From Eledone cirrhosa (lineage: Eukaryota), in NCBI GenBank assembly GCA_964016885.1, contig CAXHJY010001736.1:38793-102792 (forward strand): a stretch of 64,000 nucleotides of DNA. The letters run 5' to 3'. Below, piece after piece: positions 7,426 to 58,330 of this stretch (position 1 is its first letter; every line of letters starts with the position of its first letter). Both the position numbers and the translations under genes were made by a program. A model generated the notes under the pieces. The model saw nothing but the letters and a program-made list of their open reading frames with translations. It had not been told where the DNA came from and did no database searches.

Positions 7426-8818
7426 TTGTCCTGGGTATGACATTAAACTACACCCAGTGGCAAGGCTCCAGTTCGGGAGTTCAGGAGATGTGGGGAATGT
7501 GGAGTTACCCCTTAGTTGTCATGACTCCCAGGTCTGCCCTGGCCCGGGGTGGTAGTACCTGTTAGGGCTCCATTTATGGGTTAAATAACTACCTTATTCG
7601 AGTGGCGCTGGTAAGGTATTGTCAGCCATTGAAAAGAAATATGGAGAGTCGATCTATCAGCACTAGGGTTAGAGCCCCTAATTACACTGTCAAGGAGCAG
7701 CCTGGTCGTTATGACTCTGCTGGCTTAGAGCCACAGAGAGGGCCAGTGGATGATGGATCAGCTGTCTCTGAGACAAATATAAAGAATGCAGTTTTGTCCT
7801 GCAGAAGAGCCATCAAAATGGGCACTTTGAATGTGAGGACTATTCGGACGCTGGAGAAGAGAGAGGAGTTGGGACAGAGCCCTTCACCAGAGAGGAGCTT
7901 CAGAGAGCCAAGAAGAGGATCAAGGAGGGCAAGGCTCATGGAGAAGATGGAGTGGCATCAGAGGTGATGAAGAGGTGTGATTTTGATGATATCATCCTGG
8001 GGTTCTGTAACGGGGCACTAGAGAAAGGAGTTGCCCCGAATCAGTGGGGGATCAGTAACATCGTCCCAGTGCCAAAGAAGGGAGATCTCTCTAACACCAA
8101 CAACTACCGGGGGATCTCACTGACGTCACTTGTGGAAAAGACCCTCAACAGGATGATTCTTAACAGGATCCAGCCTGAGATGGAGAAGAAGCTCAGGGAC
8201 AACCAGAACGGCTTCAGAGAGGGTAGATCAACCACCAGTCACATCCTGATGCTGAGGAAGATATTAGAGGGAGCTAGAGCAAAGTGCCTTCCTGCGGTCA
8301 TGGTTTTCATTGACTTTAGGAAGGCCTTTGATTCTGTGGACCGTTACTGCCTGATGAAGATCTTACAGACTTATGGAATCTCCAAGAAGATAGTGGACCT
8401 GATATCACTGCTCTACACCAACACCAAAGCCCAAGTCATTACACCTGATGGGATGACAGAGTTCTTTGAGATACTGGCTGGAGTGCTCCAGGGAGATACA
8501 TTGGCTCCCTACCTTTTTATCATCGTAGTGGACTATTGTATGCGCCTTGCACTGGAGAAACACCAGGACTCTGGCTTTACTGTACCACCGGCTCAGAGCA
8601 GGAGAGTTAGGGCGAAAAAGGTATCGGATACTGAATTTGCCGACGACATAGTTTTGGTGACAAATACAGTGAAGGAGGCAGAGGATTTGATGCGGGAGGT
8701 TGAGACTGTGTCGATGAGTGTGGGGCTGAGAATGAATGAGACTAAAACAAAATATCTGGTAGAGAATGTTGAGAAGCCAGAGGGGATCACTAATGTAGGC
8801 GGGAATCTGACCAACTAG
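7426..8818 (+). mobile_element. RTE-clade non-LTR retrotransposon: 5' UTR, APE N-terminus fused to RT by internal deletion, 3' truncated
   Basis: APE start MGTLNVRT, then RT motifs PVPKKGDL..NYRGISL, QNGFREGRST, FIDFRKAFDSV, GVLQGDTLAPYLF, EFADD, GLRMNETKTK. Confidence 0.92.
7952..8818 (+). pseudogene. Reverse transcriptase fragment of RTE LINE
   Basis: 288-aa open frame with non-LTR RT motifs; stops before thumb and C-terminus. Confidence 0.9.
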
Positions 8819-21723: not shown

Positions 21724-22497
21724 TTATACTTCTCTTAGGTCAGTGGTGTTTATTTGGGTGTTGTTGTTATTCCATTCATTCTTTCTGTTTAGTCTCTTTA
21801 GTCTTCTAATTTCTATTTCACTGGCCTCTCTGATTTGCCTATCTGCTGGGTCATTTCTATGTTTAGATATTATTCTAATTTCTATGTTGTCTATGTTACC
21901 GTCATGTTGTTGTCTAGCATGTTCGTATAGTACTGACCCGTTTTTTCGTCCTTTTAGTTCCCCCCAGTGTTGGTCTATCCTTTCACCTATGCTACGAGCT
22001 GTCTCACCTATGTATGTTGTTGTCATGTTTCTGCAAGTACCCTCTGTACATCTTATGCTATAGACTACGTTTCTAGTTTTACAGTTTATCCGGGGGTTTA
22101 CCTTACATATGATACATTTCCTATTGGTACAGTGGGTTTTCTTAAAAGGGTAGGTTTTGCTGATCAGGGATTTTATGGTGGTTCCTGGCTTTTCTACCAC
22201 CTTAATTTTTAAGTGGGTCTTTCTCGGGGCCTTTCTACACTGGTTAGCTAATTTCCCTCCAGGGGTAGCGTCCACAAACATGACACTCTGGTATCTCTGG
22301 TTGTCGTACCATGAGGTGTCTTTCCCTATCTTATGTCTAGCCTTATCTAAGCTACTCCATGATTTGCTCCTCTATAATGGGCAAATTCCTTTCATGTCCA
22401 GTTCTATGAGGGTCTTATACTTTTCCATGGCTCCTTCGTATACTCTGACTCTGTCTCTTTGGTTGTAGCCAGAGAACTGCATGCGGTTGATGAAGTG
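21724..22497 (-). pseudogene. Penelope linker and GIY-YIG endonuclease
   Basis: ORF 21724-22281 plus upstream in-frame HFINRMQFSGY... Confidence 0.88.
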
Positions 22498-23142
22498 TTA
22501 GATGTGTCTTTCCATTTCTGTTGGGTCGCACATGCGGGACACATTCTTCATCACTCGTACCAAATCTGCGATCAGAATATTAAACTTAGCACTACTGGAC
22601 ATTGCTGAGTTTTTGAGTATCAGGTATTTGGAGGCCATGGGTTTAGCATAGTGTGAGTGGAGAATTTTGGCTCTCTCGTCTATAGTGTTAATCCAGAATT
22701 CTGTGTCTAATACAGGTAGTCTATTGTTAGGGTGTTTGGAAGGGAAGTCGATAGTTACAGTTATACTCTGGTGTATGGAATTAGCTATCTGCTGGATTTC
22801 TATTGTGCTAAGTTCTAAATCAAACTTGTTAGTGCTCTCTTGTGGGGATGTTCTTATAACTATATTGATATCGTCTACATAACGAGAGTACATGATGAGG
22901 TCTATGGAGCTCTCATTAAGGAGATCTTTAAGTCTCCTTTCCCACCACACCATGAAAAGGTTGGCAACATCACCAGCTATGCTGACGCCAATGGCTGCTC
23001 CCTCATTTTGGGTGTAGATCTTCTTGTTGAACTTAAATATGTGGCCCTTTAGGGTAGTTTTGATACTAGCCCCTATTGCATGTGCAACCATTTTTCTTAC
23101 CTGATCATTGTTTTGGAGGGTCCGTATAGCTTTGGTCCACAT
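22498..23142 (-). pseudogene. Penelope RT fragment
   Basis: 214-aa ORF with YVDD catalytic motif; reading continues past a frameshift into the linker. Confidence 0.9.
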
Positions 23143-23239
23143 TATTTAGTAAACCCCCCCCCCCCCCCGAAAGGGATGAAAATGTGAAGTTGACCTCGAC
23201 GGGAGTTGAACTCAGATCTCAGAGCTGAAACGAATACTA

Positions 23240-29833: not shown

Positions 29834-32390
29834 CTAGCTGTTTAGCCCGGCGTTGCTCGGGTTTGTTCATTTGCTATGAAAAGTTACATACAGGTAAACG
29901 TGGTTTGAAAGCGAATAAGCTTATCAATTAAGTGCATAAAGCAGTTGAACCGGTTATTAAAGGTTACGAACCAATTAGCATTTTGGTCAATCAATGATGG
30001 GTTAAAAATCTTCCAATAGCGAATTTAGTAGACCAAAGTTGCAAGATGGTGGCCCTGATGCCGCTGGGTGTCAGATCTGTCCGCCATGGAATACCCATCC
30101 AGGAAATAGTGTTCCAGATGGCATAGCTCCAACACCTGCACCAACATCTATAGCACCTCTTTGTAGACGATATTGCGTGTCATCTCTTAAGGAGAGTAAG
30201 CAAAAAGTCCATTCCTGCATAAAGTTGGCCATGGGAGAAGCATGGCTCCCCCAAATGGATGACCGCCACCGACAATGTTTGCCCTTGTGACTTGTTAATG
30301 GACATGGCAAAACATGGTCTCACCGGGAATTGGGAACGCCGGAAATCGAACGGAATATCTGATGCCGAGGGGAAAAGGTTCATCCTTGGAATGAAAACAT
30401 TCTCCCCTCTTCCACACCCGTTACAATGGTGGCCTCTATCAAGTGGGGTGTCAGTGACTTGATGACCATGCGAGTACCGTTGCAATGCTTTGGTGGACGC
30501 AAGTTCCTTATTAGCATAATGGGACAGCCAACCCTAAGCTTAATAATGTGAGGTGGGAGCCCTGGGGGCTCAAAGGGAATTTAATAACTCAACCGGATAA
30601 TTAACGATATCGTCGGGGTCTGACGTCCGGTCGATAGATTTGAAGATGTGCTCTTTACCGGGAATCTTCTCAATCAGCTGCTCGTTAATAAAATTAACCA
30701 TGGTATTTTACGGAGCAAGGATAGCTCTTTCGCTGAGCCAATCAAGGTTTTTAAAGTTAGATGAGACATTAGGAAAAACTGCTTTCCAAAGGTCAGAAGG
30801 GCTGCTCACAATGTAGCACAACGAGTCGATTGCTATGCCGTCCTTGTCATCCGCAGGGACCTTGCCCTCACCAAGTGCTAAAATATTCTGAGCAAATGCT
30901 GCAGACATGTTGTCACCATGCAAATGAGCACGCATATTTGTGCTCAGGTACAAACTCTCACCTGGAGCCACAAGATGGACGACTTAAGACAGGCACGAAC
31001 TTCATCAACTATTGTCCCTTTGGGGATGACAGGCAGCGTTTGCCGAAAATCCCCTAATAGCAGAAGGGTTACGCCACCCATAGGAGCCGTAGAATCCCTA
31101 ATGTCTTTCAGGGTCCTGTCCAATGCCTCAAGGGCACCCTTGAATGACTATCTGCACTCATCCCAAACAATGAGGCAACACTTTTTGAGAACCAGAGCTT
31201 TGTGTGAACTCTTGGTGATATTGCATGTTGGTCCGACAGAAGTTTGGGCTCATTTTCATCTAAGTATTGGGAAAGAGATTCGATATCATATGCTGTTTCC
31301 CGCAACAAATCCGGGGCCAACGTGTTAGCTTCCTCTCTGACGGTTGACGGCAAGCCATACGTCGTCAACTCACTCCCACCCATGTCGAGGTGGGCGTCCT
31401 CGATATCAATGAGTGCCCTGTTGTAGATAATGTCGCTGTAACCAACTTCCACTGAAGTATACTGCAGATGAGCCAGGCGCAGGAAGTCCTCATACATGAA
31501 GTCTCTGTACTTGACCCATAAAGATTTGGGATCACCCAATTAATATTTTTGAAGCAAAATGGCAAAGAGTTCCCGTAGACCTTTAGGTGATTTCAACAAA
31601 GCACCCTCTGTTAAAGTGGAATCCCATTGCGAATCATCTTCCAAAAGACCACGCTTAAAGCAGGCTTCCCGGTACATATCACATATTTCTCCATTAACAG
31701 TTTTGATGTCCTGAAAACTTTGTGGGCCTACAACTTCATGCAGAAGAAGGCGGAGATGAAAGCACTCATGCTGACTTGGGGACACAGTGTAAACCCTTCC
31801 AAGACAGCTGTCAAATTTTACGCCAGGATGTCTTTCAGCAGCCTGACCTGACTTTCTTCGCACCCAAGGGCATCAGAGCCCTTATTTACATATTTGCATA
31901 TGTATTTTATCGACTTGACGGAGTTGCAAAAGTCAACGTTGATGTGGGCGTTGAGCATCTTAAAGAGAAGCGGGCAGTAAGGGACCACCCATTTATTGTC
32001 GACTTGACCTCCCCTTACTGTTGTGGTGAAGCCACCGTTCTCGGGCCATCTCCACCTGTACAGGGGGTACCCGTCGCCACCAGTCTGAGTCTGGTCAACA
32101 AAATTTTGGGGGTATCCCTTACTGCACGACCCCCCCCCCCTTTTCAGACACGTGTGATGCTCATTAGGACCCGACGCACACGGACCATGAATCATGTTAC
32201 CTTTGACGATGTCATGTAATTCCTGGTCAGTTGCTGGGTTGGGGGTTTCAGCCGAAATGAAGCTGTCTATGGCACTTGAATTGATTTTATCAGCTAACCA
32301 AATCAAAATGTGAGCATGTGGCAGCCCTCGTTTTTGCCATTAGACGGTGAACATGTCACATTTTACAGCCCCAAATACCTGACCATCTGG
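29834..32390 (-). mobile_element. Helitron copy 1 (Rep motifs 2-3 plus Pif1-like helicase, decayed) with intact 3' terminus
   Basis: WQKRGLPHAHILIW (HUH), KYICKYVNKG, GDFRQTLPV, QFPVRPCFAMSINKSQGQTL..FSHGQLY; hairpin + CTAG end at 29834. Confidence 0.93.
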
Positions 32391-33212
32391 CAATGAGGTC
32401 ATGTCTGTTCGAATAATTCTGCCCAGGAAAAAGTTCACGCGTTACATTCTGATTCATATGTCTATAGCATTAATCTGTTATATGAAGTGTTATTTTGTGG
32501 GTTATAATTTGCAATAAGCCGATTGAAAATGCCCCAGATAAGCCGTATGTCAATACGTAAATAAGGGCTCTGATGCCGCAATGTTCGCATTTCAAGCTGA
32601 AAACAGCAAGGACGAGGTCACAGAATACCTGGCGGGGCGGTACATCAGTAGCAATGAAACTTTTTGACGCCTATTTGGTTTACCCCTACACCAACGTCAC
32701 CCCGCCATCGTACAGCTTGCGGTACATTTGGAAAATGGGCAAAGGGTTTACTTTACGGACCAAACCGCCGCCAAGTTGGCCGCCGATCCGAAAGAGACCA
32801 CTCTGACGGGTTTCTTCAAACTTTGCCAGTTCGATACATTTGCGCAAACAATTGTGTACTCCCAGGTTCCATCCTACTTTATATGGTCGAAAAACACTTG
32901 GGTGCGAAGAAAGTCAGGTCAGGCTGCCGAAAGACATCCTGGTGTAAAATTTGACAACTGTCTTGGAAGGGTTTACACTGTGTCCCCAAGTCAGCATGAG
33001 TGCTTTCATCTCCGCCTTCTTCTGCATGAAGTTGTAGGCCCACAAAGTTTTCAGGACATCAAAACTGTTAATGGAGAAATATGTGATACGTACCGGGAAG
33101 CCTGCTTTTGGAAGATGATTCGCAATGGGATTCCACTTTAGCAAAGGGTGCTTTATTGAAATCACCTAAAGGTCTACGGGAACTCTTTGCTATTTTGCTT
33201 CAAAAATGTTAA

Positions 33213-34292
33213 TTGGGTGATCCCAAATCTTTATGGGTCAAGTACAGAGATTTCATGTCTGAGGACTTCCTGCGCCTGGCTCATCTGCAGTATACTTCAT
33301 TGGAAGTTGGTTACAGCGACATTATCTATAACAGGGCACTCATTGATATCGAGGACGCCCACCTCGACATGGGTGGGAGTGAGTTGGCGACGTATGGCTT
33401 GCCGTCAACCGTCAGAGAGGAAGCTAACACGTTGGCCCCGGATTTGTTGCGGGAAACAGCATATGACACAGAATCTCTTTCCCAATACTTAGAGGAAAAT
33501 GAGCCCAAACTTCTGTCGGACCAAAGGTTGGCCTATTTAACTATCATTGACGCGGTTCAAAATCAGACTGGGGGTATTTACTTTCCGGATGCTCCTGGGG
33601 GTACTGGAAAAAGTTATGTAACGAAATTGATTCTCGTTAAGATTCTTCAGAAGAAAAAAGTTACGTTGTCCGTTGCATCGTCCGGGATCGCTGCTACTTT
33701 GCTCCCGGGAGGCAGGACAGCACATTCAACCTTTAAACTCCCCTTGCATTTAGTAAAAACTGAGACACCAACATGCAATATCACCAAGAGTTCACACAAA
33801 GCTCTAGTTCTCAAAAAGTGTTGCCTCATTGTTTGGGATGAGTGCACAATGGCACTCAAGGGTTCCCTTGAGGCATTGGACAAGACCCTGAAAGACATTA
33901 GGGATTCTACGGCTCCTATGGGTGGCGTAACCCTTCTGCTATCAGGGGATTTTCGGCAAACGCTGCCTGTCATCCCCAAAGGGACAAGAGCTGATGAAGT
34001 TCGTGCCTGTCTTAAGTCGTCCATCTTGTGGCTCCAGGTGAAGAGTTTGTACCTGAGCACAAATATGCGTGCTCATTTGCATGGTGACAACATGTCTGCA
34101 GCATTTGCTCAGAATATTTTAGCACTTGTTGAGGGCAAGGTCCCTGCGGATGACAAGGGCGGCATAGCAATCGACTCGTTGTGCAACATTGTGAGCAGCC
34201 CTTCTGACCTTTGGAAAGCAGTTTTTCTTAATGTCTCATCTAACTTTAAAAACCTTGATTGGCTCAGCAAAAGAGCCATCCTTGCTCCGTAA
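33213..34292 (+). pseudogene. Helitron Pif1-family helicase fragment
   Basis: 359-aa ORF with SF1 helicase motifs I-IV; premature stop. Confidence 0.9.
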
Positions 34293-44533: not shown

Positions 44534-44598
44534 TATTTTATCTGATGAAAGCGTACCAATGTTGTCTTGGTCGCCCTTGAAATATATATAATAAAATA
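44534..44598 (+). ncRNA. Type I hammerhead ribozyme, family C
   Basis: tattttat-CTGATGA-aagcgtacca...tggtcgccctt-GAAA-tatatat-A-ataaaata; 8-bp stem I. Confidence 0.8.
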
Positions 44599-44710
44599 GA
44601 TATGGTTTTATAAATATAGTTTCCATTTATTTAATATCATTGTATATATATATATCTCGTATATATAAAAGGAGGAAGTTATAGTTCACTTGAAGCATTG
44701 TGTAATGAAG

Positions 44711-48350: not shown

Positions 48351-48611
48351 AATATATACATATATATATCTATACTTACATATCTATGTATATATACATA
48401 TATAAATCTATGTATATATATACATATATAAATCTATGTATATATATACATATATAAATCTATGTATATATACATATGTAGATAAATCTACCAAGAGTTT
48501 ACGGTAGTGTCCAATCCGTATGAAGAACTCAATGTATTCCGGATATCATGGAAAGAAGAGATGTAATGAAAAACCACTTTCGGTGAAAGATAAACGGTAT
48601 ACAGAGTCAAG

Positions 48612-49029
48612 ATAAAATATTAAACAAATAATGAATAAACAATTCCTTATATTAAACAAAAAAAGTTCATTATTTAACGATCGTTTCTAGGGTATATATG
48701 TGTTATAATTGGTATGCATATTCAACAGATCTATGTACAAAATTATACAAGATTATACAAATTATCAAGATTAAATATACATACCAAACACATATATACG
48801 CCGTCTTCAGAAATATTATTCAGATTATTTCTGAAGACGGCGTATATATGTGTTTGGTATGTATATTTAATCTTGATAATTTGTATAATCTTGTATAATT
48901 TTGTACATAGATCTGTTGAATATGCATACCAATTATAACACATATATACCCTAGAAACGATCGTTAAATAATGAACTTTTTTTGTTTAATATAAGGAATT
49001 GTTTATTCATTATTTGTTTAATATTTTAT
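48612..49029. repeat. 418-bp fold-back (204-bp arms, 10-bp spacer) holding two opposed HHRs with a very long stem II
   Basis: Plus HHR 48824-48972: attattt-CTGAAGA-[~116 nt]-GAAA-CGATCGT-T-aaataat; mirror copy 48669-48815. Confidence 0.9.
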
Positions 49030-49181
49030 ATATACATATATATCTATGTAATGAATTCAATGATATTAAATAAATGGAAACTATATTTATAAAATACAAA
49101 ATGTTATATACATATATATATATATGTATATATATATACATATATATATATACATATATATATATGTGTATATATATATAC

Positions 49182-55609: not shown

Positions 55610-58330
55610 CTGCTGAAGACTGGGTTTTTTACTCTTTCTGTGTCTCTGTCTCTGTGAGAATAATCATTGGTTTCCTTTCATCATATAAGTGGTGTTAGCG
55701 GCGGTGGCGGTGATTGCCGAAGACTGGGTCTTTGACTCTGTATCTGTCTTTCTGTGTCTCTGTGAGAATAATCATTGGTTTCCTCTCATCATATGTAGAA
55801 ATGGTAATAGTGGCGATGATGGTGGTGGTGGTGCTGCTGCTGCTGCCGAAGACTGGGTCTTTGACTCTGATTTCTGTGTTGTTTCTGTGGCAATAAACGC
55901 CGGTTTCCTCTCATTTATGGTAGTAGTGGTAATGGTGATATTGGTGGTGGTAGTGGTGCTACCGAAGACTGGGTCTTTGACTCTGATTTCTGTGTTGTTT
56001 CTGTGGCAATAAACGCCGGTTTCCTCTCATATGTGGTAGTAGTGGTAATGGTGATATTGGTGGTGGTTGTGGTGCTACCGAAGACTGGGTCTTTGACTCT
56101 GATTTCTGTGTTGTTTCTGTGGCAATAAACGCCGGTTTCCTCTCATTTATGGTAGTAGTGGTAATGGTGATATTGGTGGTGGTTGTGGTGCTACCGAAGA
56201 CTGGGTCTTTGACTCTGATTTCTGTGTTGTTTCTGTGGCAATAAACGCCGGTTTCCTCTCATTTATGGTAGTAGTGGTAATGGTGATATTGGTGGTGGTT
56301 GTGGTGCTACCGAAGACTGGGTCTTTGACTCTGATTTCTGTGTTGTTTCTGTGGCAATAAACGCCGGTTTCCTCTCATTTATGGTAGTAGTGGTAATGGT
56401 GATATTGGTGGTGGTAGTGGTGCTACCGAAGACTGGGTCTTTGACTCTGATTTCTGTGTTGTTTCTGTGGCAATAAACGCCGGTTTCCTCTCATTTATGG
56501 TAGTAGTGGTAATGGTGATATTGGTGGTGGTAGTGGTGCTACCGAAGACTGGGTCTTTGACTCTGATTTCTGTGTTGTTTCTGTGGCAATAAACGCCGGT
56601 TTCCTCTCATTTATGGTAGTAGTGGTAATGGTGATATTGGTGGTGGTTGTGGTGCTACCGAAGACTGGGTCTTTGACTCTGATTTCTGTGTTGTTTCTGT
56701 GGCAATAAACGCCGGTTTCCTCTCATTTGTGGTAGTAGTGGTAATGGTGATATTGGTGGTGGTTGTGGTGCTACCGAAGACTGGGTCTTTGACTCTGATT
56801 TCTGTGTTGTTTCTGTGGCAATAAACGCCGGTTTCCTCTCATTTGTGGTAGTAGTGGTAATGGTGATATTGGTGGTGGTTGTGGTGCTACCGAAGACTGG
56901 GTCTTTGACTCTGATTTCTGTGTTGTTTCTGTGGCAATAAACGCCGGTTTCCTCTCATTTATGGTAGTAGTGGTAATGGTGATATTGGTGGTGGTTGTGG
57001 TGCTACCGAAGACTGGGTCTTTGACTCTGATTTCTGTGTTGTTTCTGTGGCAATAAACGCCGGTTTCCTCTCATTTATGGTAGTAGTGGTAATGGTGATA
57101 TTGGTGGTGGTAGTGGTGCTACCGAAGACTGGGTCTTTGACTCTGATTTCTGTGTTGTTTCTGTGGCAATAAACGCCGGTTTCCTCTCATTTATGGTAGT
57201 AGTGGTAATGGTGATATTGGTGGTGGTAGTGGTGCTACCGAAGACTGGGTCTTTGACTCTGATTTCTGTGTTGTTTCTGTGGCAATAAACGCCGGTTTCC
57301 TCTCATTTATGGTAGTAGTGGTAATGGTGATATTGGTGGTGGTAGTGGTGCTACCGAAGACTGGGTCTTTGACTCTGATTTCTGTGTTGTTTCTGTGGCA
57401 ATAAACGCCGGTTTCCTCTCATTTATGGTAGTAGTGGTAATGGTGATATTGGTGGTGGTTGTGGTGCTACCGAAGACTGGGTCTTTGACTCTGATTTCTG
57501 TGTTGTTTCTGTGGCAATAAACGCCGGTTTCCTCTCATTTATGGTAGTAGTGGTAATGGTGATATTGGTGGTGGTTGTGGTGCTACCGAAGACTGGGTCT
57601 TTGACTCTGATTTCTGTGTTGTTTCTGTGGCAATAAACGCCGGTTTCCTCTCATTTATGGTAGTAGTGGTAATGGTGATATTGGTGGTGGTAGTGGTGCT
57701 ACCGAAGACTGGGTCTTTGGCTCAGATTTCTGTGTTGTTTCTGTGGCAATAAACGCCGGTTTCCTCTCATATGTGGTAGTAGTGGTAATGGTGATATTGG
57801 TGGTGGTTGTGGTGCTACCGAAGACTGGGTCTTTGACTCTGATTTCTGTGTTGTTTCTGTGGCAATAAACGCCGGTTTCCTCTCATATGTGGTAGTAGTG
57901 GTAATGGTGATATTGGTGGTGGTTGTGGTGCTACCGAAGACTGGGTCTTTGGCTCAGATTTCTGTGTTGTTTCTGTGGCAATAAACGCCGGTTTCCTCTC
58001 ATATGTGGTAGTAGTGGTAATGGTGATATTGGTGGTGGTTGTGGTGCTACCGAAGACTGGGTCTTTGGCTCAGATTTCTGTGTTGTTTCTGTGGCAATAA
58101 ACGCCGGTTTCCTCTCATTTGTGGTAGTAGTGGTAATGGTGATATTGGTGGTGGTTGTGGTGCTACCGAAGACTGGGTCTTTGACTCAGATTTCTGTGTT
58201 GTTTCTGTGGCAATAAACGCCGGTTTCCTCTCATTTATGGTAGTAGTGGTAATGGTGATATTGGTGGTAGTGGTGGTGGTGGTAATAATGATAGTGGCGG
58301 TGTTGTGACATCTGAAGACTGGGTCTTTGA
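55610..58330. repeat. 116-bp satellite, ~21 homogeneous copies plus degenerate edge copies
   Basis: ccgaagactgggtctttgactctg... period 116 from 55846 to 58166. Confidence 0.97.

Follow-up and report, generated by a model that had tools for sequence, protein, structure and literature searches.

The inverted pair of hammerhead motifs in this Eledone cirrhosa contig most probably (about 0.7) represents a two-armed stub of a Hydra-type Penelope-like element (PLE): both nicked strands of a TA target would have primed reverse transcription on capped sense RNA, and the two cDNAs would have run off that RNA and been joined head to head. The locus itself is an ordinary young insertion by-product of a known kind. 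The head-to-head layout has already been described for PLEs, and the new part is the pattern found at the junctions.

A young two-armed insertion in a TA repeat

The window comprises 64,000 nt of Eledone cirrhosa DNA (GCA_964016885.1, CAXHJY010001736.1, 38,793-102,792, forward strand), and all positions below are window coordinates. The 418-bp palindrome with near-identical arms described in the sequence-only reading is real; its arms (48612-48815 and 48826-49029) are 204 nt each, 100% identical with 0 mismatches, and separated by a 10-nt spacer. The whole insert, sited in a TA repeat, spans 48475-49029 and thus reaches 137 nt to the left of the palindrome, which corrects its earlier limits. 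It is composed of pLTR and tail on the minus strand and a tailless pLTR on the plus strand, as follows.

48465-48477, plus strand: 13-nt direct repeat, left copy
48475-48611, minus strand: tail, 137 nt, the sequence that follows the pLTR at the parent's tandem junction; present on this arm only
48612-48815, minus strand: left pLTR copy, starting 5 nt ahead of the hammerhead core
48810-48804, minus strand: left-copy hammerhead core, predicted cut between 48676 and 48675
48816-48823, no strand: junction filler TTATTCAG, 8 nt
48824-49029, plus strand: right pLTR copy, which begins at the stop shared across the family (putative +1, A of TCATT)
48824-48972, plus strand: type I hammerhead motif with 7-bp stem I, CUGAAGA, GAAA and palindromic stem III ACGAUCGU
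48838-48953, plus strand: stem II region, 116 nt, with C·A, two pairs, C·C and a long interrupted hairpin
49027-49039, plus strand: 13-nt direct repeat, right copy

The palindrome is as young as had been supposed, since 341/341 nt match a full-length copy. The left tail equals positions 7916-7780 of the parent copy L031 at 137/137 nt, and the right pLTR copy, which ends in the TA repeat without a tail, is identical at 206/206 nt to L031, L032, and L033. In the left copy merely 5 nt of the stem I 5' strand are retained, a correction to the earlier description of two opposed hammerheads. The last base of the filler, G 48823, stands where the parent element has C and is a candidate cap-derived G; alternatively, it could reflect a slip onto the TTCAG of the other arm. 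The 13-nt direct repeat is likely a target-site duplication, a call that we keep tentative because it lies within a TA-rich repeat and shares 3 nt with the end of the element.

An ORF scan of the window revealed no evident host gene around the insert, and mobile-element fragments are present. Broken mobile-element ORFs occur at 7566-8815, 21727-23145, and 31111-34289, and we take them, from their motifs, to be LINE-like RT, another Penelope-like RT, and Helitron-like pieces. Elsewhere in the window a 116-bp unit is repeated about 21 times in tandem with 93-95% identity (55686-58305). A second hammerhead motif of type I, belonging to another family, lies at 44534-44640; it has an 8-bp stem I, a 30-nt stem II region, and a palindromic stem III, and a TA repeat comes after it.

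A Hydra-type parent element

A search of the genome (3.0 Gb) returned 41 matches out of 31 scored candidates. L031 is a 6.5-kb unit consisting of a pLTR, the 137-nt tail, an ORF, a 3.5-kb microsatellite-rich region, and the same pLTR in sense. It carries a single ORF of about 810 aa and the hammerhead motif in sense orientation at its 3' end, and the linkage to a Penelope-like ORF that had been suspected from the window is therefore found. The ORF contains YRDD at residue 346 (the YxDD of RT), a GIY-YIG-like endonuclease (VYKC...YIG near the C terminus), SDKT at 114, in which DKT replaces DKG, and RWR at 37, the last shared with its four closest homologues. The CxCX5C linker appears as CNCRNKANC at 673, and the endonuclease CxxC and CxH as CRLC at 771 and CNH at 799; inspection by eye, without alignment to canonical PLE endonucleases, revealed no evident CCHH motif. 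Pfam and PDB sequence searches with this ORF yielded no useful match. Following the RT, at approximately residues 480-590, lies an Asn/Thr/Lys/His-rich low-complexity stretch reminiscent of the Asn-rich inserts of rotifer Penelope elements.

DKT, RW[K/R], CxCX5C, CxxC, CxH, and a (TA)n target are likewise given for the Hydra clade by Craig et al. 2021 (PMC8557442), as are GUU sites, closing pairs other than G-C, and hammerheads in sense near the 3' end; insertion into (TA)n and a sense hammerhead near the 3' end are both present here. The clade is described there as short (<3 kb), a typical rather than strict trait, with tails of 30-40 nt, whereas the element studied here is 6.5 kb long with its 3.5-kb microsatellite-rich 3' region and has a tail of 137 nt. 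By these motifs, rather than by an RT tree, we assign the parent as a Hydra-type Penelope-like retrotransposon. The C-terminal endonuclease rules out the Naiad clade, and a non-LTR retrozyme is ruled out by an inverted pair derived from an ORF-bearing parent instead of a non-coding tandem hammerhead array. The locus also displays the features of inverted pLTRs of EN+ PLEs, namely, head-to-head pLTRs, a one-sided tail, and a short, if tentative, target duplication.

Among the endonuclease matches listed, 150/150 are 99-100% identical. The arm, whose copy number had been left to a search, is very abundant: an exact 14-mer pattern matches the genome 11,690 times (control, 4) and an exact 20-mer 9,672 times (control, 0), which puts the core motif at about 11,700 copies genome-wide. 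Close opposed core pairs gave 1,197 matches (a few loci counted twice; control, 1). With about 1,200 opposed pairs among some 11,700 core copies, the head-to-head layout is a routine product of this family.

A hammerhead motif with a long stem II

In the right arm, stem I pairs ATTATTT (48824-48830) with AAATAAT (48966-48972), the core CTGAAGA occupies 48831-48837, and GAAA at 48954 is followed by ACGATCGT (48957-48964) and U 48965, with the predicted cut after GUU (48965). The type I hammerhead-like layout with a stem II region of about 116 nt and a predicted GUU site thus stands as originally described; the stem II strands quoted as enclosing about 85 nt do enclose such a stretch, but it measures 82 nt and is mostly paired. 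CUGANGA and GAAA boxes and an NUH site are present. The core is closed by C·A instead of the canonical G10.1-C11.1, and stem III of the monomer is not a stable helix but 2 bp plus palindromic GAUC, with an 8-bp helix possible in a dimer. A palindromic stem III implies dimers, following Cervera and de la Pena 2014 (PMC4209133). Folding of the 149-nt unit (48824-48972) gives -45.4 kcal/mol, with a z score of -6.67 and 0/200 shuffles as stable, and the active monomer fold lies 6.4 kcal/mol above the best fold. Rfam returned no hammerhead match at the gathering score or at E up to 10, only AT-rich hairpin noise, and the expectation that standard hammerhead searches would miss this motif is thereby borne out.

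Across 26 aligned copies, hand-chosen from 57 distinct copies plus further subfamily members, the core is invariant (26/26) apart from one stem III change, although conservation of CUGAAGA is partly due to selection because the pattern used to pick the copies contained the core. At H17 these copies, which span several subfamilies, have U or A and never G. Of 908 cells, 96.4% are paired; double changes occupy 54 cells versus 18.9 in shuffles, while the number of pairs showing a double change (8 versus 7.4) is not in excess. Stems I and II are 94-97% paired, with 2 and 5 pairs double-changed, far above slid controls, and these compensatory events are non-independent and stem mostly from one subfamily split. 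One pair at the base of stem II is found as G-U, G-C, or A-U. Other copies therefore keep CUGAAGA, GAAA, and stem pairing, with compensated stems, within a core-based selection of copies. The stem II region measures 90-126 nt in 113/116 pattern matches, the other 3 lacking the second box, and the long stem II is therefore a family trait; judging by the alignment, it is kept paired by compensatory change and is not palindrome-derived.

Other hammerhead families in the genome have stem II regions of 13-88 nt (0 matches in 400 kb of shuffled sequence), which puts 116 nt at the long end of the range, and they too include non-G-C closing pairs. A 163-nt stem II at L227 is an unverified descriptor match that may join boxes of two adjacent motifs. 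A long stem II as a Hydra-wide trait is ruled out, since two further families of this genome, B and C, have 13-nt regions. The Hydra motifs listed in the supplement of Craig et al. (PMC8557442, File S2) have stem II regions of at most about 27 nt versus 116 nt here and often show U·U next to the core; one of them, PLE-X1_cBra, a purely computational listing, shares CUGANGA-C ... A-GAA with C·A adjoining the core and has a short stem II of about 21 nt. The long-armed, C·A-closed hammerhead is probably a real variant, and we judge it rather likely that it can cleave under some condition. None of 97 copies begins at the predicted cut site (0/97), so cleavage is not evidenced by these insertions and a junction at the ribozyme cut site is ruled out; this is in line with the uncut main template of the anole element (Frangieh et al. 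2024, PMC11167929). Two loci (L212 and L213) contain a short inverted pair whose center is the palindromic stem III, not the start site.

A fixed stop position and an extra G

For the family of the window element (family A), we define +1 as the A of TCATT, 7 nt ahead of the catalytic core. In a sample picked by 3' ends (97 usable among the first 100 copies listed), 41 copies run on upstream, 29 end within 5 nt of +1, 17 end inside the motif, and 10 end 6-25 nt upstream, several of these 10 being chance extensions into TA flanks. Among palindrome arms, 50/108 begin exactly at +1 and 6/108 extend beyond it.

The parent element has C immediately before the +1 A. In palindromes, the filler base adjoining the arm is G in 8/18 arms that start at +1 versus 0/16 that start elsewhere. 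In 62 junctions unselected for the adjoining base, 3 abut a SINE and 17/59 others carry G; most (38/59) carry A or T. Excluding possibly templated cases leaves G in 9/13 against a nearby background of 11%, a fraction that, like the other filtered ones, is inflated because the filter discards A/T more readily than G. Genome-wide, 649 +1 junctions carry G and 2,456 carry A or T; the junction samples come mostly from one contig (C1).

Two other families display a comparable stop. Family B, also Hydra-like (25,040 matches; L118, L288-L317), has a hammerhead-like motif in which CAGAAGA replaces CUGANGA; the motif is closed by U·U, and its stem II region is 13 nt long. The stop of family B is the A of TTAGTT; of 97 usable sites among 100 non-T sites listed, 18 run on, and the 79 stopped sites carry G in 52 cases (32/44 filtered; background, 17%). 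Family C (137 matches; L318-L347) has a compact hammerhead with a 13-nt stem II region and a stop 5-6 nt ahead of the core, with G in 3/3 arms reaching its A (CCAGAT) and a TATA-like box 30 nt upstream of the stop position. No TATA box lies at -30 in family A. A conserved AATAAA sits 8 nt ahead of +1 in that family; families B and C lack one at this spacing. We take TCATT and TTAGTT to resemble an initiator.

An extra G marks capped full-length L1 insertions (PMC11702581), and a promoter in the pLTR has been shown for D. virilis Penelope (PMC2377424). From DNA junctions we infer an RNA start site and cap at +1, and the combination of a sharp single stop with a frequent extra G makes it likely that both arms were copied from capped element RNA. 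The lack of AG before +1 rules out, for family A, a splice acceptor there of the kind found in D. virilis Penelope.

Two further observations concern the vicinity of +1. The sequence TCAATAAA, 9-16 nt before +1 in each L031 pLTR, is kept in all family A subfamilies seen, while its neighbors diverge, and could be either a promoter element or a poly(A) signal. In addition, fragments of varied length that we label as SINEs lie exactly at the putative start in older copies (L093, L182, L186, L254, L255, L256, and L287), with 3-18 nt duplicated. They may reflect either repeated insertion at an ATTATT match or cDNA that jumps onto SINE RNA and back.

Template of the two arms

We compared the arms of 41 palindromes in which both are whole (one locus counted twice). 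Exactly one tail is present in 39/41, and where arms differ, 26 differences are private and 12 are family-shared, 5 of the latter at the last column. A single tail, arms of the same variant, and private differences point to one RNA or one source with two start points, and two unrelated RNA templates are ruled out; at L017, L023, and L107 the arms differ at a few sites and may be exceptions to the same-variant rule. Such a pattern could also arise by self-priming, if one cDNA or antisense template folded back at the AT-rich start and was copied into the second arm, as rotifer Penelope elements are interpreted by Arkhipova et al. 2013 (PMC3846280). This would account for arms that are nearly always of the same variant (19/41 identical) despite 66/201 alignment columns varying within family A, and for the 2-nt overlap at 23/49 junctions. 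A copied-back arm cannot, however, acquire a cap G of its own. In 49 unselected one-tail palindromes, +1 is reached by the untailed arm in 30 and by the tailed arm in 23, yet G occurs on 9 untailed versus 3 tailed arms, and six loci (L105, L218, L244, L349, L413, and L435) bear G on both arms. Nor does an antisense template predict a stop and an extra G at an initiator of the sense strand. Two primed cDNAs thus fit better, and we consider fold-back copying improbable.

The RNA end at +1 might instead arise by processing, such as 3' cleavage after AATAAA, or by a structural stop, with G added by terminal transferase. The conserved AATAAA 8 nt before +1 allows a cleavage reading, and the retention of TCAATAAA ahead of +1 with U-rich sequence after it speaks for it as well; against it, 8 nt is a short spacing for poly(A) cleavage, families B and C share the stop and the G without AATAAA there, C has its TATA-like box at -30, and G is missing at other stop positions (0/16). 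We regard processing as distinctly unlikely. Still less credible is a selected, self-inhibited regulatory ribozyme within long dsRNA at this locus. The duplex part of that earlier proposal stands, as a read-through transcript is predicted to form one 204-bp duplex hiding both cores (-310.9 kcal/mol versus -54.4 and -37.3 kcal/mol for the separate arms). Its singular, regulatory part does not, as some 1,200 pairs of this kind occur as by-products of insertion, the copy matches young source-like copies exactly and therefore shows no sign of selection, and its surroundings hold mobile-element fragments in place of an evident host gene. RNA from the element's own putative start would hold the sense copy only. 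An assembly or library artefact, that is, a fold-back chimera, is hardly credible at all: the contig is small and none of the public contigs listed bridges the exact junction, but the tail lies on one side only, the flanks are unlike, a direct repeat brackets the insert, fillers vary among loci, and a contig from another organism and study has the same kind of junction.

Proposed insertion route

In the preferred reading, twice-primed reverse transcription of capped sense RNA, the pLTR promoter would start RNA at the A of TCATT, so that the hammerhead would be transcribed first. The element's protein would initiate one cDNA at the tail end (+343) and another at the pLTR end (+206), both would run off the RNA cap, the extra G being copied cap, and the gap would be closed by end-joining with short AT overlaps or fillers. 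In vitro, the anole Poseidon protein also uses two internal start sites, and both strands are nicked and extended by it (Frangieh et al. 2024, PMC11167929). There, as proposed here, the two starts define the tail, uncut RNA is the main template, and the hammerhead is protein-assisted; Poseidon belongs to a different clade, and the examined sections of that paper describe neither inverted junctions nor a cap signature. In L1 twin priming, too, both target strands prime and full-length 5' junctions carry an extra G (PMC11702581). The inverted L1 piece comes from a neighboring stretch of the RNA and is not duplicated, whereas here both arms copy the same stretch to its 5' end.

The predicted ribozyme would work only as a dimer through the palindromic stem III, probably aided by protein. 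Cleavage would remove the cap and 142 nt, and the RNAs copied here would have been uncut. Somewhat short of even odds, we entertain a 5'-terminal decapping switch, in which the capped start lies 5-7 nt before the core and a dimer of the enzyme primes twice near that end; the run-off cDNAs, comparable to strong-stop DNA, would be joined into palindromes or else jump to another RNA. If true, inverted pLTRs, the one-sided tail, and the boundaries of pLTRs would all follow from one sense-template mechanism, and the 116-nt stem II with C·A closure would still be compatible with cleavage.

Implications for Penelope-like elements

Inverted, 5'-truncated pLTRs with a one-sided tail have already been described (Arkhipova et al. 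2013, PMC3846280; PMC8557442, Fig. 2), as have pairs of opposed min-HHRs spaced 100-700 bp from each other (Cervera and de la Pena 2014, PMC4209133). These described arrangements share the head-to-head order, the tail at one end, the short target duplication, and an Inr-like pLTR motif. In our three families the junction is fixed within a few bases at an initiator-like A and carries an extra G, whereas antisense-template self-priming is the published explanation (PMC3846280). In the openly accessible literature we found no PLE hammerhead with a cap-marked run-off junction at its 5' edge and no PLE stem II as long as 116 nt.

Searches for hammerheads should allow a wider range of motifs, given this long stem II closed by C·A. 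From the putative start site, the ribozyme would lie at the extreme 5' terminus of the transcript, which suggests a role in cap removal. The origin of inverted ends, and whether the template is sense or antisense, is a stated open question (PMC3846280, PMC8557442). The junctions of these young, abundant families provide a base-precise record favoring a twice-primed capped sense template, and their pattern makes the question of template and priming directly testable by naming exact start sites. More valuable than the single locus, the family-wide junctions are a clue to how Penelope-like elements insert.
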